Source: Candidatus Magasanikiibacteriota bacterium
GTDB taxonomy: Bacteria > Patescibacteriota > Patescibacteriia > Magasanikbacterales > GWA2-37-8
Direction: 5' to 3'
DNA: 64,000 nt
NCBI GenBank assembly: GCA_041665405.1
Contig: JBAYIZ010000004.1
Coordinates: 3,958 to 67,957 of the forward strand
Shown here: piece after piece, positions 33,896 to 52,352 of the stretch
Layout of the letters: every line of letters begins with the position of its first letter
How positions within the stretch are numbered: position 1 is the first letter of the stretch
Position numbers and translations under genes: made by a program
Notes under the pieces: generated by a model
Told to the model about the DNA's origin: nothing
Databases searched by the model: none
What the model saw: only the letters and a program-made list of their open reading frames with translations

Positions 33896-33912
33896 TTATT
33901 ATATATTTTTAA

Positions 33913-34410
33913 TTGATGTTTATGAATAAAAAAATTGCATTTCTTTTGATTTTAGTTGCCCCATTTTTAATAATGGGAGTTGGATGTAGCCAAGAACAAC
34001 CAAACCAATCAATCCGGTTAAATCAACCAACACAACCAACCCAAACTCAAATTTCGTATTATTTTACTGGTGGTGTGGCAGATGTATCAAATTTTTGTGA
34101 TGGTGAGAAAATGGATAGTGCTAGTTATAAAGCTGCTATAACAAAAAGGGTAGTTCAGATTGTAACGGGCAATTTAACTACAGAAGAGAAGATTAAAACA
34201 ACATTGAGCTTGGCCGCTGACGCGGAATTATTTGATCAAACATACACTCGCATCGCCAGAACTGTATTTGAAAATGGCATTGTGACTATGCACTCTGCGG
34301 ATGGTTGGGCCGGTTCGTCCATATTTTATTGTGGTTGGAAGCCATTTGTAGAAAAAAACTTGGAACAATTTCAGGAGGTAAAAAGAATTGAATGGGTGTC
34401 TGAGGATTAG
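33913..34410 (+). CDS. Lipoprotein (lipobox LIMGVGC), hypothetical
   Basis: 165 aa. The signal peptide is paralogous to the 31870 lipoprotein. Confidence 0.5.
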   Translation: MMFMNKKIAFLLILVAPFLIMGVGCSQEQPNQSIRLNQPTQPTQTQISYYFTGGVADVSNFCDGEKMDSASYKAAITKRVVQIVTGNLTTEEKIKTTLSLAADAELFDQTYTRIARTVFENGIVTMHSADGWAGSSIFYCGWKPFVEKNLEQFQEVKRIEWVSED

Positions 34411-34562
34411 AAGGTATTTAATATTGGAGAACAGTTTACAATTTGTAGACTGTTTTTTTGTTGTTTAATAAAGCATTTGTCCCATTTTTCTTAAAGTGGT
34501 ATAATGATTAAGGAAGAAGATTTTGTTTCATTTTTTAATAAATTTTTATTTAATATGAATTT

Positions 34563-37046
34563 ATGACTGTAGTCACTTTTTTGAGACGGGTCAGCGCAAT
34601 AACTTTCGCTGTCATGCTTGGAAGTGTTTTGTTTTTTGTACTTATTTTTGGAAAAGGAGCTGTCGCACAAACTGGCTCTGAAGAAAAACCAGAAGAATTG
34701 AATGATATAAAAAAAATCACGGTCTATGCCGGTGTTGAAGTATATTATAAAAATTCCGCTTTTGAAGTAAACGGGGCGGCGAGCGACCCCAAAACCAGTT
34801 TGTCAGATCCTTTGGATATGCGTTGGTCTCAAATTTCCGGTCCAGTGGGCGGCAAGGTGATTTTCAGTCAGGCAAAGTGTACACCATCCAATTGGATGGG
34901 TTTTTGTAAGACGACTATTTCTGCCACAAAGGACGGGGTATATAAAATTCGGTTAAAAGCTACAAATATCAAAAAAAACAGTAGTTATGATGATATTGCT
35001 TTGGTGTGGGATACAAAAGCTCCAATTTTAAAGGAAGTGAAAAAGATTCCAGTTATTGGAAACGATCCTAATCCGATAGTTACTATTAATGTCTCGGTTA
35101 TCAATTCCGTCAAACAAGTTTATAATCGTTTTGGATATATTATCTATGGTGGCGCATGCGCGGGACATGATACCTCAGCCAAACAAGGAAACAATGCGAT
35201 TGAGTTGTTGAAACTAGCTGATGGCACATATAATGATTGTACTATTCAAGTACAGGATATGGCTGGAAATTTAAGTAATATCTTAAAAATTTCTAAATTT
35301 ACCATTGATACTCAGCCACCGGCGTTGCCAGAAATGAATCAACCGGAAGACGATATTACTGATTCATCATACATAATATCAGGCACAAAAGAGGCCGGGA
35401 CTTCCGTTTGGTTGAAAAATAAGGAGATAGTGAAACACAATGATGATACAAGCTGGAAGTATAAAGTTAAATTAAATAGTGGGGAAAATAAATTTAGTAT
35501 ATTTACTGAAGATAAGGCGGATAATAATAGCCACAAGGTTGTTTTTAATGTTGAAAAGCAAAAACCGGTTTGTACCGCGTGGGCATATGGTACATGGGGA
35601 AAGTGTGACGATAATCAACAAATACGAAAAATAGTTTCGGCTTCGCCGTGGAAATGTGCTGGTGGTAAACCGGTGGTGTCTAAAGATTGTAAGGCAGAAA
35701 AAAATAAACCATTGTGTGAATCGTATAATTATTCGGTGTGGAGTAAGTGTATAAACAATAAGCAGGTTAGGACTATTGAATCAACATTGCCGGATAATTG
35801 CCGTGGTGGTGAGTCGCCGGTATTGAGTCAAACATGTGGTAAAGATGTTTGTGACTCCGTCAATTACACTACATGGAGTAATTGTGATAAAACAACTGGT
35901 AAAAAAATACGTAAGGTAGAATCAACCGTGCCAGCGGTTTGTGTTGTGGAAAATCCGGTGTTGAGTACGGATTGTAACGGTTGTGAATCGTACAATTATT
36001 CAATATGGAATATTTGCGCGAATAATTTGCAAACTAGAGCTATTGAATCGACTTTTCCTGCTGATTGTAGTGGTGGTGTTAAACCAGTGTTAAGTCAGGT
36101 GTGTGGTAAGTCAACATGCGATTTTGTCTATTACACCACTTGGAGCGCTTGTGACAAAGCTACCGGCAAACGAACGCGTCAGATTGAATCAACATCACCA
36201 AAAACTTGTGTTCCGGAAAACCCAGAATTATCTAAGGATTGTAATGCCTGTGAATCATACAATTATTCTATGTGGAGCACTTGTGTAAACAATACGCAAA
36301 CGAGAACTGTTGAATCAACATTTCCGTCTGATTGTAGCGGCGGTGTTCAACCAATAAAAAGTCGTGAATGTGGTAAAACCGCTTGCGATTTTACATATTA
36401 CACTACTTGGAGTGCCTGTGATAAAGCCACTGGTCAAAGAACGCGACAAGTAGAGTCAACTGTGCCAACAGTTTGTGTTGTGGAAAATCCTTGGTTAACA
36501 AAGGATTGTAATGCTTGTGAGTCATACAATTATTCTATGTGGAGCGCTTGTGTGAATAATACGCAGAGCCGAACTATTGAATCCACTTTTCCTTCTGATT
36601 GTAGTGGTGGTGCTCAACCATTATTGAGCAGGGAGTGTGGCAAGGAATTCTGTGATTATGTTTATTACACAACATGGAGTAAGTGCGATAAAAATACTGG
36701 TCAAAGAACACGGGCGGTAGAATCAACTTCACCAGCGGTTTGTGTTCCGGAAAATCCTTGGCTGACAAAAGATTGTGATCTATGTGAGTCATATAACTAT
36801 TCGGCATGGAGTGAGTGCGATGGGAGTGGGGTACAACATCGTACTATGGAATCAACATTTCCTGAAGATTGTTATGGAGGAGCCTCACAAACATACACAC
36901 GTACATGTCCGCCTTGTGACTCATGGATATATTCCTCATGGGGCACTTGCGCGAACGGTCAACAGACCAGAACTGTAATGCCAGGGACGGCTCTACCTCT
37001 TAATTGTTGGGGTGGTTCACCGTTGCTTTCACAGTCGTGCTTTTGA
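34563..37046 (+). CDS. Large exported Cys-rich protein with ~10 tandem thrombospondin-type-1-like (WSxC...RTR) repeats
   Basis: 827 aa. It has an N-terminal signal/TM segment. From aa ~330 there are alternating ~45-aa units: CESYNYSxWSxCxNNxQTRTIESTFPxDCSGGxxPxLSxxCGK and CDxVYYTTWSxCDKATGxRTRQVESTxPxVCVxENPxLxKDCNxC. Confidence 0.55.
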   Translation: MTVVTFLRRVSAITFAVMLGSVLFFVLIFGKGAVAQTGSEEKPEELNDIKKITVYAGVEVYYKNSAFEVNGAASDPKTSLSDPLDMRWSQISGPVGGKVIFSQAKCTPSNWMGFCKTTISATKDGVYKIRLKATNIKKNSSYDDIALVWDTKAPILKEVKKIPVIGNDPNPIVTINVSVINSVKQVYNRFGYIIYGGACAGHDTSAKQGNNAIELLKLADGTYNDCTIQVQDMAGNLSNILKISKFTIDTQPPALPEMNQPEDDITDSSYIISGTKEAGTSVWLKNKEIVKHNDDTSWKYKVKLNSGENKFSIFTEDKADNNSHKVVFNVEKQKPVCTAWAYGTWGKCDDNQQIRKIVSASPWKCAGGKPVVSKDCKAEKNKPLCESYNYSVWSKCINNKQVRTIESTLPDNCRGGESPVLSQTCGKDVCDSVNYTTWSNCDKTTGKKIRKVESTVPAVCVVENPVLSTDCNGCESYNYSIWNICANNLQTRAIESTFPADCSGGVKPVLSQVCGKSTCDFVYYTTWSACDKATGKRTRQIESTSPKTCVPENPELSKDCNACESYNYSMWSTCVNNTQTRTVESTFPSDCSGGVQPIKSRECGKTACDFTYYTTWSACDKATGQRTRQVESTVPTVCVVENPWLTKDCNACESYNYSMWSACVNNTQSRTIESTFPSDCSGGAQPLLSRECGKEFCDYVYYTTWSKCDKNTGQRTRAVESTSPAVCVPENPWLTKDCDLCESYNYSAWSECDGSGVQHRTMESTFPEDCYGGASQTYTRTCPPCDSWIYSSWGTCANGQQTRTVMPGTALPLNCWGGSPLLSQSCF

Positions 37047-37107
37047 TTACAATTTTAATTCAAAGGTCGAATATTGACTAAAGTTAAATTTAAATTTATT
37101 AAAATTT

Positions 37108-37503
37108 ATGAATTCAAAAAATAAATTTTTAGCAACAGTAGTTTTATTTTCAGGAGTTCTTTTGTTGGTAGGGGCAGGTTGTGCGCAAAAATCAACTATT
37201 CCAACACCAAAAAATGAAGGCACACCAGCTGTCGCTCCAGCAAAAGAAGAAGCGGCAAAACCGGGGGACGTCGGTAGTATGACAGATGATATTTATGTAA
37301 ATATAGCGGCCGAAATGAATTATGCGCTAGGAAAAGGGGATCTAAAATATTCTGGGGATGAAGGATTTGCGAAATTATTAAAGGACAATGGTGTAACAAA
37401 GGAAAATTTTGATGCCTTTTCAACAGCATTGGAGAAAGATAACGCTCGTTCAGCTAGTTTAGGATTGAAGATTATGGAACGGCTTAAGGAAATTTCAAAG
37501 TAA
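37108..37503 (+). CDS. Small lipoprotein (lipobox LVGAGC), hypothetical
   Basis: 131 aa with a signal peptide and lipobox. Confidence 0.45.
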   Translation: MNSKNKFLATVVLFSGVLLLVGAGCAQKSTIPTPKNEGTPAVAPAKEEAAKPGDVGSMTDDIYVNIAAEMNYALGKGDLKYSGDEGFAKLLKDNGVTKENFDAFSTALEKDNARSASLGLKIMERLKEISK

Positions 37504-37553
37504 CAAATAATAAAAACAGGTGAAAGCGAAATAAATTCGCTTTCACCTGTAAA

Positions 37554-39815
37554 GTGTTTTTGGAATATTTTTTTAGTATGAAATTTAAAGGAATCCAATT
37601 TAAAAATTCTGAACATATTTTTATAATTTTGGCGATTATTTTTTGTGTTTTAATTGTTTGGGGAGCCAGTCGCGCGCAAATCGCGCAAGATGCGATTACT
37701 TTTGTTAAACATTATCGGATACAAGATTGGTCAGACGCCAGAGGTATTTTTCAAACCAAAGATGGTGGATATATTTTTACCGGTCAGGCAAATTCTGATA
37801 AAATGGGGGTGTTGTCGGATATGGACGCTTTTATTTCCAAAGTTGACGCGCAAGGTGATCAACAATGGACCAAACTTTTTCAATCATTTCATTTGGTAAA
37901 AATAGATAAAGGTATCGGTGGGTATGCTAAAAAAGGGGATGAATATGGCCGTGAAATTGTTGAGCTTAATGACGGCAGTTTTTTGATGGCTAGCCAAGGG
38001 GTGGGTTTTGTGGATAGTAAATATTTAAAATCAAAAGAGAAATGGGATGATGTTTTTTTAACTAAATTTGATAAGCTCGGTAATCATCTTTGGACAAAAA
38101 TGATCGGCGATTATTCTACTGATCGCGTTTACAAAGTTTTTGCTACGCAAGATAATGGATTTTTATTTTCCGGTTATTCTACTCAGACCGGTTTTGGCAA
38201 AAAAACAGCGCCAACTTATTTTATTTTGGCTAAATTTGATAAAAATGGAAAAAAAGAGTGGTCAAAAATGGCGGATATGTCCAATGTGGATATTCAACCG
38301 TTGGCCGAAGGTGGTTTTATCGGGATAGGCAGTGTCAAAACCGCTGGTAAAGAAAGTGGCCCCGCAGAAAAATTTGTAGATTCAGCCATACCTGTGGTTA
38401 TTAAATTTAATTCCAATTTTGGAATTGAGTGGTCAAAAAGTTTAGAAATTGTTCCGTTGGAGGAATCAATTTATAAGACGGGTGAGGATGGCCACACCAA
38501 AATGAGTTATAGAACAACGCGAAATGCGGCTGGTAAATTGTTCACTATTTCGCAAACCGCTGATGGCTATATGGCCTTGGGTTTTATGTCTCCGATTTTA
38601 TCCGCTGGTTCTATTTTTTCTACGCCAGCCGGTAAATATTCATTAATGGCTATAAAAATAAATAAGTCCGGTGATTTGCAATGGGCGAAAGCGATAAAAT
38701 TGGGAATACAATATGGCGGGCAATTTAATAATGATGTAAGCGGGACAAAAATAATCAAAACAAATGATAATGGTTTTGTTTTTAAAATTGATTTTTTGCC
38801 ACCTCCTAGAATTGATCAAGAAAATAAGACAGACATAGTTGATGGAAAATCAGATCAATTAAATGCTTTGTGTGAAAGTAAAAATAGAGTTCAGGATTGT
38901 GAAGATGGAAAAATAACCAATGATCCGGAAATTCTTTTGGCATGGGAAGATTATATTAAGACGGCCAAGAGTTTTGATACAACTTTAAATAATGGTATTT
39001 TATTGGTAAAAACAGATGCGGATTTTAACCCACAATGGTCAAAAAAGATTAGTTTGGAAGATTATGTTTATGGTTATGGAATTGCGCCAACTGCAGATGA
39101 TGGTTTGATTATTTCCGGCAGTTACAATACCTCAATTTTAAGTTATAGTACCGGCATGGGGCAGGGTTATTTTGTGGATACTTTGCTTCTTAAATTGGAT
39201 GTTAATGGTAACGCCGCCAATAACCAAGGAATGATTTCCGAATATAATGATTTGTCTATCAAAGATGTCGGACCTTTTCTGGCCTTAAAAGATTTTGCGC
39301 CAGTGGTAAAAAATATCGTTTTAAAAATTGATAAAAAAGTGGTACCAAAAACGCCGGTTTTCAAAACGAAAGTTATAGATATTTACGCCACGGCTGTTAC
39401 CTCGGTGGAGCCAGTTGGTTCTGGTAGTTTACCAAAAGTTTTTCCTGCTCAAATTCCACCAATAACAAAAACTTGGGCGGAAATAAATTTTGCGAGTATG
39501 GCAGATACCGTAGAAATAAAACCAGTTTATAAAACTGCTATTCAAGTTAATCAAGAAATTTTACCTGTCCTTAATCAAATATTTTCCAATGAAGTAAAAT
39601 TAAAACCGGATGTTTTTGGTGGTCTGGAATATGTTTTTGGACGGTTGGTGAATGAGAGTGATAAAACGGCAGTACAAAAATATCTTGAAGGGATTGGATA
39701 TAAAACTTATTTAGCCGAAGGCGACCAACTAGTAATGATGAAAATTGGCAGGACGCTGACCATCACTTTTTCTTTCGCGGATAAGACGCAAGGGACTTTG
39801 TATGTGACTTATTAA
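37554..39815 (+). CDS. Membrane-anchored PQQ/BamB-like beta-propeller repeat protein (paralog A)
   Basis: 753 aa with an N-terminal TM helix. Repeats such as DGGYIFTG...FISKVDAQGDQQWTK, FLTKFDKLGNHLWTK and ILAKFDKNGKKEWSK recur every ~50 aa. A conserved ~90-aa C-terminal domain ending ...LYVTY is shared with 42772..45087. Confidence 0.45.
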   Translation: MFLEYFFSMKFKGIQFKNSEHIFIILAIIFCVLIVWGASRAQIAQDAITFVKHYRIQDWSDARGIFQTKDGGYIFTGQANSDKMGVLSDMDAFISKVDAQGDQQWTKLFQSFHLVKIDKGIGGYAKKGDEYGREIVELNDGSFLMASQGVGFVDSKYLKSKEKWDDVFLTKFDKLGNHLWTKMIGDYSTDRVYKVFATQDNGFLFSGYSTQTGFGKKTAPTYFILAKFDKNGKKEWSKMADMSNVDIQPLAEGGFIGIGSVKTAGKESGPAEKFVDSAIPVVIKFNSNFGIEWSKSLEIVPLEESIYKTGEDGHTKMSYRTTRNAAGKLFTISQTADGYMALGFMSPILSAGSIFSTPAGKYSLMAIKINKSGDLQWAKAIKLGIQYGGQFNNDVSGTKIIKTNDNGFVFKIDFLPPPRIDQENKTDIVDGKSDQLNALCESKNRVQDCEDGKITNDPEILLAWEDYIKTAKSFDTTLNNGILLVKTDADFNPQWSKKISLEDYVYGYGIAPTADDGLIISGSYNTSILSYSTGMGQGYFVDTLLLKLDVNGNAANNQGMISEYNDLSIKDVGPFLALKDFAPVVKNIVLKIDKKVVPKTPVFKTKVIDIYATAVTSVEPVGSGSLPKVFPAQIPPITKTWAEINFASMADTVEIKPVYKTAIQVNQEILPVLNQIFSNEVKLKPDVFGGLEYVFGRLVNESDKTAVQKYLEGIGYKTYLAEGDQLVMMKIGRTLTITFSFADKTQGTLYVTY

Positions 39816-39830
39816 TGAATAATTATTTTT

Positions 39831-40679
39831 ATGGAAAAAAATATAATAACTCATTTACATAAAACTTTTGAAGATTGTGTTCACATAGAAGATGATATTG
39901 AATTTTGGTTAGCAAGGGAATTACAGGTTTTGCTTGGGTATGAGAGGTGGGAGAATTTTGAAAATGCCATAAAAAGGGCAAAAATTGCTTGTACAAATGC
40001 TAAAAATGATGTTTTGGACCATTTTCGTGGCGTCACGAAAATGGTTGATGTTGGTTCTAGAACGACTCGTGAGATAGAGGATATAAAACTCACCCGTTAC
40101 GCGTGCTATCTTATCGCTCAAAATGGCGACCCACGCAAGGATGAAATCGCTTTTGCTATGACATATTTCGCGGTTCAGACCCGTAAACAAGAAATTATAG
40201 AACAGCGATTGGCTCAGTGGGATCGTTTACATGCGCGAGAAAAACTTTCCATATCCGAAAAAGGGCTTTCAGGTATATTATTTGAGCGAGGTGTTGATAA
40301 TGTAGGTTTTGCACGAATTCGCAGTAAGGGCGACGCGGCGTTATTTGGCGGGTATACCACAAGCGAAATGAAAAATAAATTAAGAGTTCCAGTTAGCCGT
40401 CCACTTGCGGATTTTTTGCCAAGTGTAACTATAAAAGCTAAAGATTTGGCGACTGAAATAACCAGCCATAATGTTAAAAAAGATCAATCGCTTAATGGCG
40501 AGCCGATAATCACCGACGAACATATAAAAAATAATCAAAATATGCGTGATATGTTGGTCAAGAGTGGTATCTATCCGGAGTCATTGCCACCGGAGGAAGA
40601 TGTTAAAAAAATGGAACGAAAAATCAAATCCGCGGATAAAAAATTGGTAAAAAATGTTAAGAAGTTAATAAGGGAATAA
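39831..40679 (+). CDS. DinD-like protein (DNA-damage-inducible protein D family)
   Basis: 282 aa. The N-terminal ~110 aa (FEDCVHIEDDIEFWLARELQVLLGYERWENFENAIKRAKIACTNAKNDVLDHFRGVTKMVDVGSRTTREIEDIKLTRYACYLIAQNG) closely follows E. coli DinD as I recall it. Confidence 0.6.
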   Translation: MEKNIITHLHKTFEDCVHIEDDIEFWLARELQVLLGYERWENFENAIKRAKIACTNAKNDVLDHFRGVTKMVDVGSRTTREIEDIKLTRYACYLIAQNGDPRKDEIAFAMTYFAVQTRKQEIIEQRLAQWDRLHAREKLSISEKGLSGILFERGVDNVGFARIRSKGDAALFGGYTTSEMKNKLRVPVSRPLADFLPSVTIKAKDLATEITSHNVKKDQSLNGEPIITDEHIKNNQNMRDMLVKSGIYPESLPPEEDVKKMERKIKSADKKLVKNVKKLIRE

Positions 40680-40749
40680 AAATTAATTAACAAAACAAAT
40701 TGTTTTTGTCACTTAAAAAAATAAAATAAAAAAGAAAAGAAAATAATTT

Positions 40750-42741: not shown

Positions 42742-42771
42742 TAATAATATATCAAAAATATTAATAATTCT

Positions 42772-45087
42772 ATGTCAAAAATTAGTTCATTTTTTAAAAA
42801 TAGTTGGCAATTTTTTTTGATTGGTATTTTATTTGTTGGTAGTTTTAGTTCATTTTATTTTTTTTGTAATCAGATTTTGTCTGTTAGTGCCGAACCGAAT
42901 AGTATTATGTTCGCCAACCCAGCGGGGACAATAAATATTCCAAATACCACTTTTCTCAAATCATATCGTCTTTTGGCTTTAACAAAAATCAGCGGCACTT
43001 GGCCGACTAAAGATGGTGGATATATTGTTTCAGGCACTACTGATCCAAATATTATGATGGTGCCACCAGATGGTTTTGTGGCCAAATTGGATAAACAAGG
43101 CAGTGTTTTGTGGATGAAATTTTTGAAAAGTACCAATGCGGCCGGTGTTGGTAATCGGCTTGGTGACGAAGATGTGCAATCAATTATTGAACTGGAAAAT
43201 GGTGGCTATTTGATGGCTTCCAAGGTCTGGGGTTTTATCACGACTGCGGAATCTAGCTCTGGTGGAGAAGTAAATAAAATTTTGCTTACGAGATTAGATA
43301 AAAACGGCAACATGATTTGGAATAAATCATTTACCGCGGCAGTGGAGGACGCAAAAAATTCTTTAGTGGAAACCGAAGATGGTTTTGTGTTTCACGCGAA
43401 CATGATTGATCTCGCACCTTCTAAAAGAGGAGAAGACAGTGCTGTATATATGGATCTGCCTTTCGCCTCGTTGAAGGTTTTGAAATTGGATAAAAATGGA
43501 AATCTTTTGTGGTCAAAAAATATCAAAAATTTTATTGCTCGCGAAAATGCTTCTTATTTTATTGCGACACAGGATGGTGGATATGCTTTGGCCGGAAATA
43601 TAACCGAAACCAATCCGGAAAAAGAACCGCCTTATAATTTTGATACTTATCCGGGTTTGGCAAAGTTTGATAAAGATTTTAATTTTGAATGGGCGAAAAG
43701 CATGGAAGGCATACCTCTGGATATGGCAATGGCCGTTCTTCAAGAGGATGGGAGTTATAAAATGGTTTGGAAAAAATGGCGTCAGGGAGCGATGGTGGCT
43801 CACGGTCTTGTTCAAACAGGGGATAATGGATATTTAATTTTAGGAAATTTTTCCGGATTATCTATGTTGTCTGATAGTTTTAATTTAAAAGCCGGTGTAA
43901 AAAATTGGATGGTAGGATTCAAATTTGATTCTACCGGCAATATGGAATGGGCAAAAAAATTAACTTTTGGTTTTAATGAATTTACTTCGCCGATGCTGAA
44001 ATTTTCCATGTCTATGACGGATGATAATCAAATAATGGTTGTTGGTCCAATTACTTGGGCGCAGGATGATTATCATACGCAAATTATCAATGCCAACACA
44101 CAGCGTGATTTATATTGTGTAAAATATCAAATTAGTGAGGAAAAATGCAAAGGTAATCAAATAGAAAATATTAAGGATAGTGAACAAACAGAACAAGATT
44201 GGGAAAAAGTGCAGACACTATATACATCTGTGCAAGAATCCTTTCGTCCGGGTGTATTTATGATGAAAATGGATGATAAATTAAATACAAGTTGGGCAAA
44301 GATAATTAACCCACAGCGCGCGGTTACGAATTATGTTTTGGAGCCGACGACAGATAGTGGTGCGGTCATCGCAGGTGAATATTCAACCAATGTAGTTAAA
44401 TCGGTTACCTTTGGTGAGAAAAATTATTATAAGGATGGTTTTTTGATGAAGTTAGACGCTAGTGGAAATGTAAAAGATGACAAAAATTGGATCATAGATT
44501 TTAATGGTGGGTTTGTCACGGAATTGATGACACCGTATTCTATTACGAATAATATAGTTGTAAAAGTAGATCCTTTTAAAATTAAATTAACAGCGCGAAA
44601 ACCGGAATTTTCACTTTATAGTAAAACAAAAACTACTATTTACGCACCTTTTAATAAATCTCTCAGCACCCCGTCTCCTACTGCGCCTATAGTGAATGCC
44701 AACAATGCTCCTTTATTAAATTCTATCATTAATTCAACCGCGCCTAGAACTTGGCCGCAAATTAATTATGAAAAAGCAGTTCCAGTTGAGCCAATCAACG
44801 ATAGAAGTCGCACTCTCAACAATGAACTTTTGCCGATTTTGAATCAACTTTATAACAACCAAGTTAAATTAAACGACAACATGGGTGGATCAATGCTTAG
44901 TTATGTTTTTGGTCGGGTTATTACCACAGAAGATATGACAGCAGTAAAAAATTATTTAGTGGGTTTGGGATATAAAACCCAAGACGAAGGACAGTATCAG
45001 TTGACAATATATAAAGTTGGATATTTCTTGAATTTAACTTTTACGGTGAACAATCTTAATAATGCGTCTTTGGATGTGACTTATTAA
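42772..45087 (+). CDS. Membrane-anchored PQQ/BamB-like beta-propeller repeat protein (paralog B)
   Basis: 771 aa. It is clearly homologous to 37554..39815 (KDGGYIVSG, GDEDVQSIIELENGGYLMAS, ILLTRLDKNGNMIWNKS ... C-terminal LDVTY). Confidence 0.45.
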   Translation: MSKISSFFKNSWQFFLIGILFVGSFSSFYFFCNQILSVSAEPNSIMFANPAGTINIPNTTFLKSYRLLALTKISGTWPTKDGGYIVSGTTDPNIMMVPPDGFVAKLDKQGSVLWMKFLKSTNAAGVGNRLGDEDVQSIIELENGGYLMASKVWGFITTAESSSGGEVNKILLTRLDKNGNMIWNKSFTAAVEDAKNSLVETEDGFVFHANMIDLAPSKRGEDSAVYMDLPFASLKVLKLDKNGNLLWSKNIKNFIARENASYFIATQDGGYALAGNITETNPEKEPPYNFDTYPGLAKFDKDFNFEWAKSMEGIPLDMAMAVLQEDGSYKMVWKKWRQGAMVAHGLVQTGDNGYLILGNFSGLSMLSDSFNLKAGVKNWMVGFKFDSTGNMEWAKKLTFGFNEFTSPMLKFSMSMTDDNQIMVVGPITWAQDDYHTQIINANTQRDLYCVKYQISEEKCKGNQIENIKDSEQTEQDWEKVQTLYTSVQESFRPGVFMMKMDDKLNTSWAKIINPQRAVTNYVLEPTTDSGAVIAGEYSTNVVKSVTFGEKNYYKDGFLMKLDASGNVKDDKNWIIDFNGGFVTELMTPYSITNNIVVKVDPFKIKLTARKPEFSLYSKTKTTIYAPFNKSLSTPSPTAPIVNANNAPLLNSIINSTAPRTWPQINYEKAVPVEPINDRSRTLNNELLPILNQLYNNQVKLNDNMGGSMLSYVFGRVITTEDMTAVKNYLVGLGYKTQDEGQYQLTIYKVGYFLNLTFTVNNLNNASLDVTY

Positions 45088-45300
45088 ATTAAATGTAGTT
45101 GCTTCCAAAAGTTATGCACTGCTACTATTTTGGATTTAAAGTATAAAAAGTGTTATAATACATGCTGACCCGTGCCCTTATTAAAAGGATCATGTTAAAT
45201 TTCATTTCAACAATTTTTTTAAATATAATTTTCTTAGGAAGCCAAGATAAATTTTTGGTTTCTTTTATTTTTTATTAATTTCATTAATTTAAATATTAAT

Positions 45301-48300
45301 ATGCAAAGAAAAGTTTTATCATTTTTGCTATTACCCATATTACTGGTGGGTATTAGTATCGGAGTTTTTTCATTCGGGCAAGCGGCTAATGCTATCAATT
45401 TGACGGTAGCACCGGTTACTTCGTCATATGATAACTTGATTGGTGCCACGAATGCGCGTTGGCAATTTACTGTCACGACTACTGCTGATATTGTAGCTAC
45501 TGATACGGTTCGCTTTATGTTTCCATTTGTAAACAATAGCGTCCCATTCTCAATTTCCAATCCTACTATTGTTACCAGTACAGGTATAACGCTATATAGC
45601 AGTTTGGGAGGGCAACTTTTATCCAATCGATTGTCCAATCCTTCTTTTGAAAATAATACTTCCAGTTGGTCATATTCGGTGGGTGGGCCACCATCTGACA
45701 CGTGGAGCCAGGTTTCTGTGACTACTTCGGCAAAATATGGCAGTAAAGCAATAGTGATGAATGCTACGAGTACAAATATAGCGAAAGTTTTTCAAAGCGC
45801 ATCAGTTGCTACCAGTTCTCTCTTTTCTGTTAGTTATTGGACAAAAGGAACAGCTGGAACCACAACTACAGCGCGATTGTTTTTGCAGGGTTCTATCAGC
45901 AGCGGGTGTGCCGGAGGAGAAGGTTATTTTTATAATTTTGCCATCGGTGATTGGGCATGTGTGGTAATGGAAAGTTTAAATGTTTCTAGTACACCATTTT
46001 CATATAATGTTGATTTGGCTGGTTCTGAATTTCAGCGCATTAGCTTTTCTACCACCTCACCTGCCACTTCTACATATAGTGGAACGGTGACTGTTTTGGT
46101 GGCGATGGGTGGTTCTGATACCATATATGATATGGAGATGATTTTGGATGCAGTGCAAATAGAAATGAGTGCCTCAGCCACTACATTTAATTTGGGCGGT
46201 GCCGCTCCCGCCACGGAAGGCGTGTTAAGCGCTACTTACGGTGAAGGTCCATCTGCTCGGCCATTTATTTATGGTTTTGTTAATACTACTACGCCGAATG
46301 GTACGGCTTTTTCATGTACTTTTGATGGTATTACCAATCCAGTGGCTCAGCGTACAGATTTGGAAGCCGCTCGTTTGACATGGAATGTTACTGGTGGAAC
46401 TTTACCAGGGGAGAGTCCAACGGCAGATTTTGTTGGTGGGAATAAATTTACTTCCAATACAAATGTAGCCGTGGTTCGATCTGGTGGAAATATAATTGTA
46501 AATCAAAATAGCAATATCACGGCTAGCGCTTTTACTACCAGTGCCTCCAATGTTACATATACATATACTTTTACACCTACTAGTAGTATTCCGACTGGAG
46601 GGAAAATAATAATGAATTTTCCGCTTGCTTACAATAATTTGTTAAATAATATTTCGGTCAGTACATCAGAAAGAATTAGTGCAGTCAATACCACTACTAT
46701 TGCCTCTTTTACCACTTCTACGGTTGGTAGCTTTGGTAATGTTAGAGTGACTATGATAACTGCTGACAGTCCTACTGATTCTGGGACAGTTATCACAATT
46801 AAAATTTATGGAGTTACAAATCCGGCAACCGCTGGTGTTTATGGTGGAGAAATGGGCGGTCCGGAAAGCAAGTTTACAGTTTATACTGCTAAGAATAATG
46901 ATGGTGTAGTGGACGGTTCGCCATTTGGAGAGGAATCGGGCGATTTTGGTACAAACGACGGTCCTCCACCTACACGAGCTCTCCATATTGGGGGAACTAA
47001 CAACATTAATATTTTAGTATATAAACAAAGTGGTAGCGGTGATGTTAGATTGTCTGATAGTGAAGTGGCTAGTATGAAAGTCGGTGTTAGCTGTCCAGAT
47101 AAAGGATTTTTTGTGGGACAGAAAAAATTAGCGACTTCAACCGATCATTCTTATGCTTCATATAATAATATTTTGGATTGTAATTATATTGTAAATGCAG
47201 AGCCGAACAACAAAGGTGACAGTACTTTTTATGAAGATTTCTTGATGCCTGCGCAAAAATCTGTGCCTGCAATTGGTGGGGTGACAGTGACCACGAGCAT
47301 TGTTTTTGGAGTGCCAAATGCTTCGACTACTTTACAGGTGACTGGTGGTGTGAGTGGAGAGGTCGCCTTTATGCAAGCATATAGTTCTGATTTTATGTCT
47401 TTTTCTCCGATATATGCGAATTCAAATTGTACTGGTAATCCAGGATTTACTTCAACAGGTACAGGTTGGGCGTGTTTGAATTTAAAGAGTGATCAAAATT
47501 GGAATTTTACAGTGATGGGGGGAGAAATGGGAAATTCAGCCAATATTACTGATGCTGATGGTAGTAAATATTGGCCGCCAACAATTCCGTCTGTTTATGT
47601 TGCCTCTGCTGGGCACACCAACCTGGGTCCGTATGCCTATGTAAAAGCGGATAAAAATTTAATTGTTAATGTAAAAAAAGCTGGTACAGATTCTATAGTA
47701 GAAAATGCATGTATTGGTGTTAAAAGAAATGGTGGCGGGATGTTTATGGGTTCGCAGGATATGACTTGTGGAAATGGTACTAAAACTTTTAAAGTACCTG
47801 TTGGATCAATTACCGTACAAGTAAGTCTACCTGGATTTGGTATGCCACAAGAATATTCAGTGGCAATTGCCGATGTAACAACTACAAAAAATATTTTTGT
47901 TAGTCAGCCGACTACTTTTATTTCTGTGCTTGTAGAGGATAGTGTTGGGAACAAAATAAATGGTGCGCCGGTGTTTGCGCATGGAAATGGTTTTGGGCAG
48001 GGTATGACTGGATCAACTGGTACAACAACTATTTATGTAGCTCCTGGAATTTATGTGGTAGAAGGTTTTGCCCCTGGTTTAGGTAAATTAACAGCTCAAA
48101 CAGTAACAGTGCCGGGGAACGGCGGTGTAGCGGCCAATTTTGAAGTTATTACAGCAAATCTAGGTACGATCTCTGGACGAGTGTACACTGATGCCGATGA
48201 TGATGGTGCTTACGATGTGATAGGCGACACTCCATTGAGTGGAATAAAAATTGGTGCCCGTGGTATTGGTAGTACCAGTGGAGGAAATGGTACAGAAACC

Positions 48301-51195
48301 GATTCCAATGGTAATTATAGTTTATATTTACCAGCTGGAACTTATGAAATTGGTGGTTGGTCATCTGACACAGGAGGTTTTCAAGCGGCCAGTAGCAAAA
48401 CAGTTACTGGAGGTGTTGCGACCACTTTGAATGTTCCGTTGCAAGGTCAAGGAACTTTACATATTACTATTCAAAACGCTTCCACCATTAGTCCATTGTT
48501 TGCCGGAGCATTTTCCTCAGTTACTGGCAAAGGAAATGGTACGGATTCATGGACAACCAGCGGAACAAGTAAAATCGCAAATCTCACTTTTCCAGCTGGC
48601 TCGTATGAATTTCATGTTGGGTCGCCGGTTACAGGTGAATTGGGAGCATCTACTCAAGTTATAACAGCTGGTGGAACTACCAATGTCACTATTGATGCTA
48701 ATGCAATTGCACCATTGGTGATAATTAGTGGTACTGTGGCTAGTAGTAGTACTGGCATTGCCAACGCTACGGTGTGGGCGGCAAAAACAGGTGGTGGACC
48801 AGGAAATTTCTCTACACAAACAGACAGCGACGGTAATTATTCTTTCAAAGTTCCACAAAATAGTTCTTTCCGCATGGGTGTTAAAATTTTGGGATATATT
48901 GCTAATGATATAAATACTTCTACAGTAACAAGTAATATTGTTGTGGATTTTGATTTGTTTGTTGCTGGCGGTACAATTAGTGGATCTGTAATAAATTCTA
49001 GTAGCGCAGCCATTGCTAACGCTTGGGTATCAGCAAAAAAAGTTGTTGGTGCTGGAGAGATGGATGTTTGGACTGGTGGTCCGACTGATGGGAATGGTAG
49101 TTTTTCTCTGAATGTTGATTCTGGAAATTGGATTGTTTTTGCAGAGGCACCTTGTTATCAACGCTCCACCGGTGTTTCCAAGGCCATTAATACGGCAGTG
49201 ACTACCACGTTAGTAGCTATTTCTGGATGTACTGCAAATGCACCGGAAATGCAAGGATTTACCCCGACAACTGGTGGACAAATGGCTAAAGGTGATATGA
49301 ATTTAGATATTCCCGCCAATGCTTTGGGTACAGGAAGTGGCACTGTTAGTTTATCGGTGGTCACGACCACTCCACGCACCGCTCCAAATGCGACTGCCTT
49401 GGCAAATTCAGTGCAAAGAATCACTGCTTCTGATAATACGGGACAATCAATTACAACATTAAATAATAATGCTTCCCTAAGTATCACATATAATGAATCC
49501 GATTTGCCAACTGGTTTTAGTGAAACCAATTTGCAATTGGGTTATTTTGACGAAACTACTGGACAATGGGAGACAGTGGCATCTACTGTGGATACAGTAA
49601 ATAATAAAATATCGGCTTCCATAAATCACTTTACTGATTATGGTCCGATATTGCCAAATGTTCCAACTGCGCCAACTGGCTTGACAGCTACAGCATCATC
49701 CACTGCTGAAATTGATTTGAGTTGGACAGCTTCTGCACCTGTGTCAGCTGATTATTATATTATTTATGCGTCTACTACTGCATTGACTGATTTTGCAACT
49801 AGTACATTAATTGCCACTACCACTGCGACATCTTATGCTCATTCTAGTTTGGATGATGCTGCTACTTGGTATTATAAAGTAGCTGGTTATAATACAAATG
49901 GTGAAGGTTGGAATTCTGGCAGAGCCAATGCTACTACTGATGCTGGTAGTTGTTCTACACTTACTGGTGCGGCCACTTACAATGCTTATCCGACTTGCGG
50001 TGCGGCCACTTGTTCTAGTGGTTATACTTTGTCTGGTTCTGGCTCAGGTGCTACTTGTACAGCCAATCAATCCAGCGGTGGCGGTGGTAGCGCTACAGAC
50101 ACCACGCCTCCAACGAATACTTCAATAGTGATTGCTGGCGGTGCGACTTCTACCGCGAATATTTCTGTAACCTTGACTCTTGGTGCTATTGATGCTGGTT
50201 ATATGATGATTAGTAATGATAGTATTTTTACCAGTAGCACATGGGAAATATATGCAACAACAAAACCATGGACATTGGCAACTATTACTGGAACGAAAAC
50301 GGTATATGTTAAATTTAAAGATACGGCCGGCAATATTTCCGCGGTAATATCTGATTCTATTGAATTGTTATCTGGGTATGTAATTGTTCCTCCTGCTGTT
50401 ATTTTTCCTCTAGTAGTAACTCCGCTGGTCATTGTTCCGGTATTTGAGATTCCAGTTGTGATTCCAACTGTAATAGTGTCCAATCCTGATTCCAAAGTGA
50501 TAGTTACTCCTCCAACAATTGCTTCTTATCAACCTGGTTCTGCTCTTAAATTTAACTATTCATATAAAAATGAGACAACAAAACCATTATTAGTAAGAGT
50601 AACTAGACAATTGATAAATAGTAAGAATAAAATAATAAAGACGGCAAGTGCCAACAAGACACTCAAAGTTGGTGGTATATTTACAAGTAAGGTTAATGAA
50701 GCCATTCCTAGGAATTTGGTAGCAGGTGAATACGCCATTAAGATTAAAATATTTAATGCTAAAACCAATAAATTGTTAGCAGAAAATAGTTTCAAGATTC
50801 AAGCGGAAAAGTTGAAAAAGAAATATTTTTCTTTGGTTGGTGAAATGCCGGTGGAGACAGACATTGCTTTTGATAAAACAGCGTGGGGTAAAGTCAAAAC
50901 AAATGTTCTTGTACCTAATAGTTTAAAATTAAAATATTCCTATACCAACAATACTGATAAAAAGCATACGGCAAAAATGGTTCGCGAATTGGTGGATTCT
51001 AACAGTAAGGTATTGGAAACAAAAACTGGCAAATGGGTAATGAAAGTTGGAGAAAAAGACAGCACAACTTTCACACAAGCCATCTCAACCAAATTAATTG
51101 CGGGTGAATATGCAATTAGGATTAGAGCTTATGATTGGACGTCCAAAGAACTATTAGCAGAAAATAGTTTTGGATTTAAAGTAGAATTGAAATAA
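45301..51195 (+). CDS. Giant secreted surface/adhesin-like protein (1964 aa) with CarbopepD_reg/SdrD-B-like and FN3-like repeats
   Basis: It has a signal peptide and Thr/Ser/Gly-rich beta-sandwich repeats (GRVYTDADDDGAYD...TDSNGNYSL, SDGNYSFKV). An FN3-like segment (PTAPTGLTATASSTAEIDLSWTA) is present. The C-terminal KxK-rich repeats are duplicated, with KPLLVRVTRQL... and DKKHTAKMVREL... as variants. Confidence 0.6.
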   Translation: MQRKVLSFLLLPILLVGISIGVFSFGQAANAINLTVAPVTSSYDNLIGATNARWQFTVTTTADIVATDTVRFMFPFVNNSVPFSISNPTIVTSTGITLYSSLGGQLLSNRLSNPSFENNTSSWSYSVGGPPSDTWSQVSVTTSAKYGSKAIVMNATSTNIAKVFQSASVATSSLFSVSYWTKGTAGTTTTARLFLQGSISSGCAGGEGYFYNFAIGDWACVVMESLNVSSTPFSYNVDLAGSEFQRISFSTTSPATSTYSGTVTVLVAMGGSDTIYDMEMILDAVQIEMSASATTFNLGGAAPATEGVLSATYGEGPSARPFIYGFVNTTTPNGTAFSCTFDGITNPVAQRTDLEAARLTWNVTGGTLPGESPTADFVGGNKFTSNTNVAVVRSGGNIIVNQNSNITASAFTTSASNVTYTYTFTPTSSIPTGGKIIMNFPLAYNNLLNNISVSTSERISAVNTTTIASFTTSTVGSFGNVRVTMITADSPTDSGTVITIKIYGVTNPATAGVYGGEMGGPESKFTVYTAKNNDGVVDGSPFGEESGDFGTNDGPPPTRALHIGGTNNINILVYKQSGSGDVRLSDSEVASMKVGVSCPDKGFFVGQKKLATSTDHSYASYNNILDCNYIVNAEPNNKGDSTFYEDFLMPAQKSVPAIGGVTVTTSIVFGVPNASTTLQVTGGVSGEVAFMQAYSSDFMSFSPIYANSNCTGNPGFTSTGTGWACLNLKSDQNWNFTVMGGEMGNSANITDADGSKYWPPTIPSVYVASAGHTNLGPYAYVKADKNLIVNVKKAGTDSIVENACIGVKRNGGGMFMGSQDMTCGNGTKTFKVPVGSITVQVSLPGFGMPQEYSVAIADVTTTKNIFVSQPTTFISVLVEDSVGNKINGAPVFAHGNGFGQGMTGSTGTTTIYVAPGIYVVEGFAPGLGKLTAQTVTVPGNGGVAANFEVITANLGTISGRVYTDADDDGAYDVIGDTPLSGIKIGARGIGSTSGGNGTETDSNGNYSLYLPAGTYEIGGWSSDTGGFQAASSKTVTGGVATTLNVPLQGQGTLHITIQNASTISPLFAGAFSSVTGKGNGTDSWTTSGTSKIANLTFPAGSYEFHVGSPVTGELGASTQVITAGGTTNVTIDANAIAPLVIISGTVASSSTGIANATVWAAKTGGGPGNFSTQTDSDGNYSFKVPQNSSFRMGVKILGYIANDINTSTVTSNIVVDFDLFVAGGTISGSVINSSSAAIANAWVSAKKVVGAGEMDVWTGGPTDGNGSFSLNVDSGNWIVFAEAPCYQRSTGVSKAINTAVTTTLVAISGCTANAPEMQGFTPTTGGQMAKGDMNLDIPANALGTGSGTVSLSVVTTTPRTAPNATALANSVQRITASDNTGQSITTLNNNASLSITYNESDLPTGFSETNLQLGYFDETTGQWETVASTVDTVNNKISASINHFTDYGPILPNVPTAPTGLTATASSTAEIDLSWTASAPVSADYYIIYASTTALTDFATSTLIATTTATSYAHSSLDDAATWYYKVAGYNTNGEGWNSGRANATTDAGSCSTLTGAATYNAYPTCGAATCSSGYTLSGSGSGATCTANQSSGGGGSATDTTPPTNTSIVIAGGATSTANISVTLTLGAIDAGYMMISNDSIFTSSTWEIYATTKPWTLATITGTKTVYVKFKDTAGNISAVISDSIELLSGYVIVPPAVIFPLVVTPLVIVPVFEIPVVIPTVIVSNPDSKVIVTPPTIASYQPGSALKFNYSYKNETTKPLLVRVTRQLINSKNKIIKTASANKTLKVGGIFTSKVNEAIPRNLVAGEYAIKIKIFNAKTNKLLAENSFKIQAEKLKKKYFSLVGEMPVETDIAFDKTAWGKVKTNVLVPNSLKLKYSYTNNTDKKHTAKMVRELVDSNSKVLETKTGKWVMKVGEKDSTTFTQAISTKLIAGEYAIRIRAYDWTSKELLAENSFGFKVELK

Positions 51196-51229
51196 TAATT
51201 AACCCCGAAATATTATTCGGGATAACAAA

Positions 51230-51877
51230 ATGTGTATGGACAAAAAGACAAAAACAATTGTCATCGTGGTATTGGCGGTGATAGTTGTGGCTGGTGCATA
51301 TTATGGCATCAATCGTTGGCGTCAACAACGGTTGGTTAACCAATATTTGAAAGGCCTGTATGGTGGAGGAGTGAACACAGGTTTGCTTGGTAATTTTGCT
51401 GGTGGTATTGGCGGTGGAATTACTCAGGAGCAAATCGCCAAAGAAATAGCCAAAGAAATGGCGAAAGAAGAGTTGCAACAGAAAAATAATGAAATAAAAG
51501 AAGCCGCAAAAACTCCAGAAGATAAATATGATGCGGTTGAAGAAATGCCGACTTATGATGCTAACTCCAAAGCATTGGCAGATGTGGGCAAAGATATTAT
51601 AGAAAAGGCGTTTGGTAAAGCAAAATTGACTACTATTTCCAGTGGTTTATATGGTGCCGGTTCTGGAATGGTTAGTTTTACAATTGCTCGTCCTACGACT
51701 GCTGCTGATTTGGCCGCGCTTGGTAAAGTATTGACTGACAAGGGATTGCCAATTATGCAAAGTGGCATTGAAGATAAAAGTGCAGGAGTAATGTCTGGAG
51801 CAAATAATTTTATTTATACTATTAGTTTTGAAATAGGCGAACAGGAGGTGGGAATGCTTATTATGAAAACTAATTAA
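51230..51877 (+). CDS. Hypothetical membrane-anchored protein
   Basis: 215 aa with an N-terminal TM helix followed by a Gly-rich and KE-rich region. Confidence 0.4.
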   Translation: MCMDKKTKTIVIVVLAVIVVAGAYYGINRWRQQRLVNQYLKGLYGGGVNTGLLGNFAGGIGGGITQEQIAKEIAKEMAKEELQQKNNEIKEAAKTPEDKYDAVEEMPTYDANSKALADVGKDIIEKAFGKAKLTTISSGLYGAGSGMVSFTIARPTTAADLAALGKVLTDKGLPIMQSGIEDKSAGVMSGANNFIYTISFEIGEQEVGMLIMKTN

Positions 51878-52232: not shown

Positions 52233-52352
52233 TTTGTTAGTATAATTCAGACAAAAGCCCGCTCATCATAGCGGGTTTTTGTTATTTATTAACATCTATA
52301 CTTTTAATAGTTTTTATGTTAAAATGATGTAGTTATTTTTAAATAAAAAATT

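Follow-up and report, generated by a model that had tools for sequence, protein, structure and literature searches.

The region between positions 34563 and 51195 of the window (the whole stretch of 64,000 nucleotides of Patescibacteria DNA that was analyzed) had been described in a first-pass annotation as one 17-kb cluster of large secreted and membrane-anchored proteins, and this raises the question of whether its genes form a single functional module. All seven open reading frames (ORFs) of that description were found as claimed, at the coordinates given below, all on the plus strand and with intergenic gaps of 15–213 nt. The presence of such a set of extracytoplasmic proteins in a Patescibacteria genome was also borne out: database entries identical to cluster proteins, which are labeled as hypothetical proteins of a Candidatus Magasanikbacteria metagenome-assembled genome (MAG), support the placement. 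Searches of the literature by accession, locus tag, and topic returned no description of these proteins, and the majority of the conserved, lineage-specific surface proteins in the candidate phyla radiation lack a functional assignment. The 17 kb did not hold together as a single module, however, as synteny across lineages was limited to one or both of two propeller genes and the genes for a 215-aa and a 110-aa protein. The comparative genomics proposed as a check in the first-pass annotation split the cluster into a conserved core, a unit found only in the closest relative, and insertions, and at least three transcription units were recognized in the region. These comparisons show the 17-kb region to be a mosaic, in which an old core is conserved and the other genes were added later. 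Of 119 confirmed matches to GTDB genomes, the best 80 were compared, 25 of them of the type of the 771-aa propeller (here called the 771-type), which the search patterns favored.

The two propeller genes encode paralogous proteins. Paralogue A (37578–39815, plus strand) has a putative signal sequence ending ASRA/Q, a seven-bladed beta-propeller, and a C-terminal domain (CTD) encoded at 39456–39812. As a listed ORF it has 753 aa and begins at GTG 37554, which falls within the tail of a strong terminator at 37516–37550, and the start of the gene is likely to be ATG 37578. Paralogue B (42772–45087, plus strand; 771 aa) consists of an N-terminal hydrophobic helix, a seven-bladed propeller with a helical insert at aa 434–490, a beta-rich linker, and a CTD encoded at 44734–45084. 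In both propeller families, A-x-A-like cleavage motifs follow the hydrophobic segment, and the proteins may therefore be either cleaved or retained in the membrane by this segment. The blade repeat K-[LF]-D-x2-G-x3-W-x-K occurs seven times in each paralogue: six clear copies and one degenerate copy in B, and five regular-expression matches plus two degenerate copies read by eye in A. Both proteins have a seven-bladed, SBBP-like beta-propeller fold. Structure prediction, another check proposed for the locus, was run with AlphaFold for paralogue B and for the CTD. The AF2 model of paralogue B (pLDDT 84.5, pTM 0.82) showed strands grouped in a blade-like manner, and the best Foldseek match to this model was CylK (7roo, E = 8e-13), followed by six-bladed propellers; the top matches were all propellers. 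Neither paralogue matched any Pfam family at E < 0.01, SBBP (PF06739) and DUF5122 (PF17164) included, and paralogue A had a weak match to the NCBIfam model Lepto_SBBP_lipo (2.6e-9, 36 bits against a cutoff of 400). The propellers nevertheless resemble SBBP/DUF5122-type surface proteins, such as T9SS cargo of Bacteroidota and LipL53-family lipoproteins of Leptospira, in the signature DGGY...K-L-D-x2-G-x3-W-x-K, the seven blades, and secretion, and PF17164, PF13360, or PF18962 is present in their distant relatives, which are 22–31% identical across the propeller region. They differ from those proteins in the inter-blade helical insert, in having an alpha/beta CTD instead of the T9SS beta-sandwich tail, and in their Patescibacteria host; to our knowledge, Patescibacteria are monoderm and have no T9SS.

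The identity between the paralogues had been put at 35–40% throughout, whereas BLASTP gave 29% over 740 aa (E = 5e-85), and a value of 39% was reached by the C-terminal domains alone. Orthologues of paralogue A, at 63–82% identity, were found in loci L005, L007–L009, L011, L025, L026, and L033–L035. Paralogue B has about 70 orthologue clusters with 49–80% identity and occurs at no fewer than 25 GTDB species loci among the best 80 of 119 confirmed matches. The length of the propeller proteins is nearly fixed across lineages. In the nearest relative (L007), the propellers are 80–82% identical to those of the window, compared with 83% for MgsA, 77% for TsaE, and 65% for a PLD-like protein. Judged from these sequences, propeller conservation is comparable to that of housekeeping proteins, and nine charged residues are invariant and common to both paralogues (K63, R66, D203, K309, E312, R337, D528, K560, and D562). 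Because the orthologues of each paralogue share 63–82% identity, against about 29% between the paralogues, the duplication is ancient, and the two genes are an old tandem pair. They lie side by side in L005, L008, L009, L025, and L026, whereas inserts separate them in L007 and L011. The recent rearrangement suggested earlier for this locus was correct for the cargo between and after the paralogues, which is recent, but not for the propeller duplication.

The C-terminal domain had been regarded as a private feature of the two propellers that could not be assigned. It is indeed common to both (the match of the CTD profile to paralogue A was 3e-34) and has no assignment in Pfam, NCBIfam, or PDB, but it is not private, as copies were found in 93 representative clusters and in the product of a third gene at this locus. 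The CTD, about 110 aa long, is predicted with confidence to fold as an alpha/beta domain (AF2 pLDDT 95.7), in which the order of secondary-structure elements includes two alpha-beta-beta units, and the propeller proteins end in L-D/Y-V-T-Y. No significant match was found in Pfam, NCBIfam, PDB (by sequence and by fold), or BFVD; the fold search was performed with Foldseek against PDB and BFVD and may have overlooked a remote similarity to a known fold. A sorting or anchor signal (LPXTG, PEP-CTERM, T9SS CTD, SLH, LysM, or PG_binding) was rejected: there was no profile match and no hydrophobic tail, and the CTD is a folded domain. The 93 representative clusters, which were collected in an exhaustive profile search, consist mostly of short proteins in which a linker joins the CTD to a lipid or membrane anchor, and three architectures were recognized: (i) propeller and CTD; (ii) a transmembrane (TM) helix or lipobox, linker, and CTD; and (iii) a signal peptide, PPC-like domains, CTD, and a C-terminal TM helix. 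For the short CTD proteins, a single taxon name was obtained from the clusters, “Patescibacteria group bacterium.” When a broadened CTD HMM was applied to the 410 ORFs of the window, it detected the 215-aa protein (1.5e-8) and the two propellers, and no others. The CTD is thus an independent, uncharacterized module with a confident fold. The first-pass annotation had also considered the opposite outcome, a well-known anchor domain in a cluster conserved as housekeeping in all relatives. This was not what we found, because the cluster is not conserved housekeeping across all relatives, and the CTD is not a known anchor either.

The third CTD gene lies just beyond the end of the region first described. 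It encodes a putatively bitopic protein of 215 aa (51230–51877, plus strand; likely start ATG 51236) with a TM helix, a conserved juxtamembrane motif NRWRQQR, a Gly-rich stretch, a charged helix, and, as the third copy at this locus, a divergent CTD; its topology can be assigned only provisionally because the flanks of the TM helix are basic on both sides. In a comparison of the 215-aa family profile with the CTD profile (hhalign), the probability was 95.7% (E = 8.5e-9), and the CTD was found in almost all members of the family across 90 loci. Downstream of the 215-aa gene almost everywhere is a gene for a DUF4870-like small membrane protein of 110 aa (51900–52232, plus strand here), which, at loci with a downstream flank, nearly always comes next after the 215-aa homologue. 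Its match to PF09685 (1e-4) is just below the cutoff, and its L004 orthologue has PF09685 on record. A terminator scan of the region placed a terminator-like site 3′ of the 110-aa gene, at 52250–52283. The order propeller, 215-aa gene, 110-aa gene was present in 8 of the 25 GTDB loci with a 771-type gene, and in the other 17 the 771-type gene was alone within 10 kb (both counts among the best 80 of 119 confirmed matches). In metagenome loci with enough upstream flank, a CTD-bearing propeller adjoins the 215-family gene in about three-quarters of cases, including deeply diverged loci in which propeller identity is only 28–34%; some 215-family genes have no propeller nearby. The old core consists of the propeller gene(s), the 215-aa gene, and the DUF4870-like gene, and is found in a subset of Patescibacteria.

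The space between the paralogues is a variable slot, in which the genes for DinD and a 663-aa protein are cargo. The DinD-like gene (39831–40679, plus strand; 282 aa) proved to encode a bona fide cytoplasmic DinD, with 337.6 bits against a cutoff of 242 for NF008573 (6e-101, model positions 1–287 of 288) and a Bro-N domain (Pfam, 8e-9). A DinD gene lies between the paralogues in L011 as well, and none was found in this slot in L005, L007, L008, L009, or L026. The 663-aa protein (40750–42741, plus strand), encoded between DinD and paralogue B, has two N-terminal beta-rich repeats, a central E-S...MQ domain, a TM helix at about aa 425–447, and a C-terminal FG-GAP-like domain. It belongs to a roaming Patescibacteria family, which has more than 246 homologues without a Pfam domain and some relatives that carry Hydrolase_2 instead. 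Elsewhere, its homologues adjoin another Bro-N gene (L087), Fic (L088), and a Y1 transposase (L089), and in L105 a homologue again lies beside a 771-type gene. A fixed mobile pair of DinD and the 663-aa protein was considered and rejected: the pairing is loose, because the upstream Bro-N protein in L087, although of the same length, is not similar to the DinD found here. The earlier reading of the 663-aa protein as SLT-like holds for the E-S...MQ motif, which recurs in the family as an invariant E311-S and ..MQVG, but nothing significant emerged from Pfam, PDB, or profile searches; neither the single sequence nor the family profile gave a meaningful Pfam or PDB match. When the family was aligned with Escherichia coli EmtA by hhalign, using an approximate EmtA sequence, the E-S and GLMQ motifs were aligned with a probability of 2% (E = 0.024).

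The largest gene of the region (45301–51195, plus strand) encodes a secreted protein of 1964 aa and lies between paralogue B and the 215-aa gene. This giant has a signal peptide, CarboxypepD_reg-like and fn3 beta-sandwich domains, a Pro/Val-rich segment, and two C-terminal Ig-like repeats. It was absent from the same position in L004/L007, L008, L009, L017, and L020, and its only relative at 44% identity (L013/L119) lies on the opposite strand, beyond the 110-aa gene. An extended -10 promoter-like element, AAAAAGTGTTATAAT, was recognized at 45145–45159 on the plus strand by comparing the window with L007 and L008. In these relatives the element is immediately 5′ of the leader hairpin of the 215-aa gene, and here it is 5′ of the giant gene. 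The leader hairpin itself, CCCCGAAATATTATTCGGG, which was seen in the window, L007, L008, and L025, is at 51203–51221 (plus strand), 14 nt 5′ of the likely start of the 215-aa gene. The giant is therefore a lineage-specific insertion exactly between the ancestral promoter of the 215-aa gene and its leader hairpin.

At the other end of the region, the first two genes form a separate upstream unit that is found only in the closest relative. The first encodes a secreted protein of 827 aa (34563–37046, plus strand) with a hydrophobic N-terminal signal, an Ig-like region (Big_13; Pfam, 4e-7), and the Cys repeats noted previously, which number eleven, with four Cys in about 44 aa each, out of 48 Cys in the protein. 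All eleven follow the pattern C-x7-W-x2-C-x5-7-R-x10-12-C-x11-13-C. They resemble thrombospondin type-1 repeats in the arrangement W-x2-C...R...C...C, and the sole profile match was a weak one to PTN_MK_C (E = 0.0036, below the cutoff), a family that we take to be TSR-related. Among the loci examined, an orthologue was present only in the closest relative (L004/L007/L095, 88–90% identity). The second gene (37108–37503, plus strand) encodes the helical lipoprotein of 131 aa that had been predicted, with a lipobox (VGAGC) in the sequence ...LLLVGAGC/AQK at residues 18–25. This protein had no family match in Pfam or NCBIfam; its gene is conserved together with the 827-aa gene (85% identity in L007), and the only other match was a partial one in L018 (38%). 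A strong terminator-like hairpin with a 15-bp stem (37516–37550, plus strand) divides these two genes from the propeller unit. A candidate Lgt gene (273 aa) is located at 59668–60489 of the window, and its position in the gene order matches that of the Lgt gene (PF01790) in the syntenic relative L004.

Taken together, the region is a mosaic containing a conserved envelope module of propeller, 215-aa, and 110-aa proteins, and we consider it somewhat probable that the CTD acts outside the cytoplasm as an autonomous module for association. Anchored in the membrane, the 215-aa protein, possibly together with the DUF4870-like protein, would gather both propellers through their CTDs, either by CTD–CTD pairing or by means of one common envelope ligand, and the outcome may be a stable propeller platform at the cell surface. 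A more specific and rather unlikely version is that the CTD is a homotypic docking module in a Patescibacteria-specific, non-covalent surface display, with the 215-aa and DUF4870-like proteins as a socket into which the cleaved propellers plug by their CTDs. Such a display would be functionally like those based on cohesin–dockerin or SLH, yet with an undescribed fold. The proposed logic, a terminal folded domain common to secreted proteins and a membrane-bound partner encoded next to them, is that of SLH, LysM, and cohesin–dockerin display, whereas the CTD matches none of these domains in sequence or fold.

Two further likenesses were considered. The layout of the 215-aa protein and of the short CTD proteins, in which a short N-terminus and one TM helix are followed by a linker (helical or of low complexity) and, at the C-terminus, by an alpha/beta domain of about 100 aa, is also that of PilN/PilO and GspL/GspM, whose domains are known to form pairs. 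Relative to this type of domain, the CTD contains two additional strands, and the Foldseek match to the C-terminal domain of PulM was weak and not significant (rank 13, E = 0.19, TM 0.31). An identity with PilN, PilO, or GspM was rejected, as none of 39 members of the 215-aa family matched PF05137, PF04350, or PF04612 at E ≤ 1, and neither did any of 19 CTDs; no pilus or secretion genes were found beside the 215-aa gene, the neighbors of which are the propeller and the DUF4870-like protein. Because Pfam gives no support, we retain PilO/GspM as an architectural analogy only. Among solved structures, LppA of Mycobacterium tuberculosis (PDB 2v7s) had the highest TM score to the CTD model (TMq 0.49, probability 0.99) and, like the CTD proteins, is a lipid-anchored extracytoplasmic alpha/beta protein, but with E = 0.024, 14% identity, and a TM score below 0.5. 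We know of no established function for LppA, and the match therefore adds no mechanism.

In the first-pass annotation, it was suggested that the cluster as a whole could serve an episymbiont for attachment to, or interaction with, its host; on this view the propellers, the giant, and the Cys-repeat protein would be adhesins that bind the surface of the host cell. The organism is a Patescibacteria MAG, the large proteins are all extracytoplasmic with binding folds (beta-propeller, Ig-like, CarboxypepD_reg, fn3, and TSR-like Cys repeats), the distant relatives of the propellers are secreted T9SS cargo, and secreted proteins are also encoded in the flanking region. However, the genes of the cluster are not conserved together, one of them (DinD) codes for a DNA-damage protein of the cytoplasm, and both the giant and the 663-aa gene arrived by independent insertion. 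The housekeeping-level conservation and near-fixed length of the propellers are also unlike adhesins that track variable hosts. On these comparisons of sequence and gene order, we regard attachment by the whole cluster as unlikely, and the strong conservation of the propellers points instead to a conserved ligand or a role in envelope maintenance rather than to a fast-evolving host adhesin. That the propellers are extracytoplasmic enzymes, for example processing glycans or wall polymers in the central cavity, with the CTD as a substrate- or wall-binding module that also occurs in stand-alone small proteins, seems quite improbable to us. Enzymes whose catalytic domain is a propeller are the best structural matches (CylK, E = 8e-13, followed by sialidases, a sulfotransferase, and carotenoid oxygenases), and high conservation together with invariant charged residues common to the paralogues would suit an active site. 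CylK, a Friedel-Crafts alkylating enzyme in which a beta-propeller is combined with an additional domain, matched the full-length model of paralogue B over about 545 aligned columns (7roo/7fh6), but with an identity of only 14–15% and a TM score of 0.36–0.43, and it belongs to an unrelated context, a cyanobacterial natural-product pathway. Identity to any enzyme was 9–15% with TM scores of only 0.2–0.4, no enzyme family was matched in Pfam or NCBIfam, and propellers are generic scaffolds.

It may also be asked whether there is any functional unit here, or whether genes for secreted proteins have piled up in one region of the chromosome and the CTD reflects only the common descent of the paralogues. 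For the 17-kb cluster overall, this is largely what the comparisons show, given at least three transcription units, variable cargo between the paralogues, the inserted giant, and other secreted-protein genes upstream. For the core, chance co-location is insufficient, because the order from the CTD-bearing propeller through the 215-aa to the 110-aa gene is kept in lineages whose proteins now share about 30% identity, and because the 215-aa protein carries the CTD though it is not a propeller paralogue; as an account of the whole, this reading is very improbable. If the CTD of the conserved envelope module docks or binds the wall, it would provide a handle on envelope organization in ultrasmall bacteria and a marker domain for annotation; if it does neither, the locus would be another set of conserved hypothetical secreted proteins. 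In either case, what had been a vague surface cluster is replaced by a testable gene triad, a list of inserted cargo, and one new domain common to three larger products.

On the upstream side, the flanking region contains further genes for secreted proteins. A high-GC block at 22–28 kb, which was considered as a possible rRNA region, proved to be protein-coding.

In this metagenome-assembled genome of Candidatus Magasanikbacteria (Patescibacteria), the region at 34563–51195 was found to be a mosaic of a conserved core and lineage-specific additions. All seven ORFs named in the first-pass annotation were found on the plus strand, with spacings of 15–213 nt. The 827-aa protein begins with a hydrophobic signal, followed by an Ig-like region (Big_13) and then by eleven repeats of ~44 aa with four Cys apiece; the 131-aa protein has a lipobox; the 282-aa DinD-like gene encodes a full-length DinD that exceeds the NCBIfam cutoff; and the 1964-aa giant (45301–51195) combines a signal peptide with several CarboxypepD_reg and fn3 beta-sandwich domains. 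The label “SLT-like” for the 663-aa protein (identical to NCBI hypothetical protein WCV83_01735) was not confirmed: its invariant E-S...MQ motif aligns with lytic transglycosylase catalytic motifs without statistical support, and no match was found in Pfam or the PDB with either the sequence or the family profile. Terminator-like hairpins were located at 34426–34458, 37516–37550, 45236–45264, and 52250–52283, and the region therefore contains at least three transcription units. The repeats of the 827-aa protein (35571–37046, aa 337–827) alternate between A-type and B-type, and every one contains four Cys and a W-x2-C...R motif. They are reminiscent of thrombospondin type-1 repeats, to which a weak PTN_MK_C match is the sole pointer and which would be unusual among bacteria. 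The version in the closest relative is longer (975 aa).

The two propeller proteins, of 753 aa (from GTG 37554, or more likely from ATG 37578, to 39815) and 771 aa (42772–45087; identical to NCBI hypothetical protein WCV83_01740), are paralogues as proposed, homologous across 740 aligned residues (E 5e-85), but at 29% identity rather than the 35–40% first given. Each contains seven K-[LF]-D-x2-G-x3-W-x-K blade repeats, and in both families the N-terminus is basic, followed by 18–21 hydrophobic residues and a motif resembling A-x-A (ASRA|Q or V-S-A|E), so the proteins may stay anchored or may be cleaved and released. The AlphaFold2 model of the 771-aa protein, based on 48 homologues, was confident (pLDDT 84.5, pTM 0.82). 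In it, an N-terminal helix leads into a propeller, which a helical insert (residues 434–490) interrupts; a beta-rich linker then connects to a C-terminal alpha/beta domain (CTD, residues 661–770). Foldseek searches with this model returned propeller proteins only, of which CylK was the best match (E 8e-13, TM ~0.4, 14% identity); six-bladed propellers of the sialidase-like kind ranked next. At least one more propeller–CTD subfamily, with 28–34% identity to both paralogues, occurs in other loci (L032, L036, L100, L102, L112, L131, L135, L141, L145, L146, and L150) and in the proteins P0071 and P0074, which have an additional N-terminal domain of ~200 aa and a total length of 943–954 aa.

Modeled alone, the CTD (last 117 residues) reached a pLDDT of 95.7, with the order helix-helix-strand-strand-helix followed by four strands. 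As had been suggested, it could not be assigned to a known family: there was no match in Pfam, NCBIfam, or a PDB sequence search, and Foldseek searches of the model against the PDB and viral models gave nothing at E ≤ 1e-3. The nearest solved structure by TM score (0.49) was the Mycobacterium tuberculosis lipoprotein LppA. A sorting signal was also considered and rejected, since the CTD is a folded alpha/beta domain that matched no known family. It is not “private” to this pair, however: an exhaustive search with its profile, covering 1.84 billion representative proteins, placed it in 93 clusters. Three architectures were recognized. The first (600–950 aa) joins a hydrophobic N-terminus to a propeller and the CTD. 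In the second, represented by many short proteins of 140–300 aa, nothing but a membrane anchor (TM helix or lipobox) and a low-complexity linker precedes the CTD, which sits at the extreme C-terminus. In the third, found in a few proteins, a signal peptide and PPC-like domains come before the CTD, and a TM anchor closes the C-terminus. Judging by the short proteins, the domain is an autonomous extracytoplasmic module.

A third copy is carried by a 215-aa protein (51230–51877; identical to NCBI hypothetical protein WCV83_01750), the ORF of which starts 35 nt beyond the end of the annotated cluster. In this protein, a TM helix and a highly conserved juxtamembrane motif are followed by a charged helix, and a divergent CTD forms the C-terminus. 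In a profile–profile comparison, the 215-aa family (39 sequences) matched the CTD alignment with 95.7% probability (E 8.5e-9, 105 columns). The CTD profile, once the short forms had been added to it, also matched the 215-aa protein (1.5e-8); among the 410 window ORFs, the only other matches were the two propellers, and in 90 fetched loci this profile found the CTD in nearly all 215-aa family members.

We compared loci from three sources, namely long contigs, one genome per GTDB species, and metagenomes seeded with the 215-aa family, and mapped every window protein onto them. The orthologues of each paralogue showed 63–82% identity in species in which the other paralogue scored 26–30%, indicating that the propeller duplication is ancient rather than recent as had been proposed. 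The paralogues are directly adjacent in four loci (L005, L008, L009, and L026), and L025 has them side by side in reversed order. In 8 of the 25 species loci, a propeller–CTD gene is succeeded by the 215-aa gene and the DUF4870-like gene of 110 aa (51900–52232), and a CTD-bearing propeller adjoins the 215-family gene in about three-quarters of the loci with enough upstream sequence, including propellers of distant lineages with 28–34% identity to either paralogue; the 110-aa gene is next after the 215-aa gene almost everywhere. Based on this recurring order, the conserved unit comprises one or two copies of the propeller–CTD gene, the TM–CTD gene, and the DUF4870-like gene. The 215-aa/110-aa gene pair also trails the extra propeller–CTD subfamily in distant lineages. 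Contigs of four loci with clear Patescibacteria orthologues (L011, L023, L032, and L036) sit in Gammaproteobacteria, Draconibacterium, or Nitrospirota bins in GTDB records, which probably reflects binning contamination.

The remaining genes vary among relatives, so the cluster is not one module. The 827-aa/131-aa pair was found only in the closest relative (L004/L007/L095) among the loci compared. The slot between the paralogues holds DinD and the 663-aa gene in the window, a 282-aa gene and DinD in L011, and a GNAT gene, a SocA_Panacea gene, and a small ORF in L007, and is empty in the remaining loci. The 663-aa family is common across Patescibacteria at roaming positions, where its neighbors are another Bro-N gene, a Fic gene, or a Y1 transposase, and in L105 a member once more adjoins a 771-type gene. 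In L007 and L008, an extended −10 element (AAAAAGTGGTATAAT) adjoins a leader hairpin directly upstream of the 215-aa gene, whereas in the window the giant gene (5.9 kb) lies with its leader between the same promoter (45145–45159) and hairpin (51203–51221); the giant gene is an insertion. The stem-loop, CCCCGAAAT(A/T)TT(A)TT(T)CGGG and then TAACAAAA, also precedes the 215-aa homologue in L025, and lies ~10–15 nt ahead of the start codon. In the relatives it lies ~10 nt downstream of the promoter and so would form the extreme 5′ terminus of the mRNA, perhaps as a stabilizing or regulatory hairpin of that mRNA.

The reading of the region as a single host-attachment module is only partly supported, and the factual description behind it was largely right except for the four particulars corrected here (percent identity, “private,” “SLT-like,” and “recent”). 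The propellers are well conserved and nearly fixed in length: in the nearest relative they are 80–82% identical, compared with 83% for MgsA, 77% for TsaE, and 65% for a PLD-like protein, and in L002 they reach 62% (MgsA 77%, PLD-like protein 42%). A conserved envelope role fits this pattern better than a host-specific adhesin does, although the propellers may bind a conserved host structure or may have an enzymatic role. Because many anchored proteins have no folded part other than the CTD, and because the CTD ends three neighboring syntenic proteins here, we infer that it would act as an association module, uniting the propellers and the small membrane protein at the cell surface through CTD–CTD pairing or a common envelope ligand. 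No publication describing these proteins was found in the literature; what is new here, in a subset of Patescibacteria, is a well-delimited, uncharacterized domain family together with a conserved gene triad. The locus extends the well-known theme of modular surface proteins.

Upstream of the cluster (28708–34410) lie further genes for secreted or envelope proteins, namely a matrixin-like M10 metalloprotease (28708–29673, minus strand), an Ice_binding and PG_binding_1 protein (30216–31493), a GerMN/Germane-domain protein (33341–33895), and a lipoprotein (33913–34410). Farther upstream, 19410–28703 looks like a cassette array or an island targeted to a tRNA that carries foreign cargo. Six copies of a 26-nt hairpin element (TTTGCCTACCGTCTCGGTAGGGTCTA) lie there on one strand, with none expected by chance, each just 3′ of an ORF (20704, 21392, 23129, 23892, 27296, and 27866). 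These elements bound cassettes, including a high-GC block (0.45–0.57 vs. ~0.37) with genes for a UbiA prenyltransferase, an M42-like protein, and an MFS transporter. The array is flanked by tRNA-Glu, next to which comes a 62-nt tandem duplication, and by tRNA-Asn, the 3′ end of which, with 30 nt more, is repeated 92 nt downstream.
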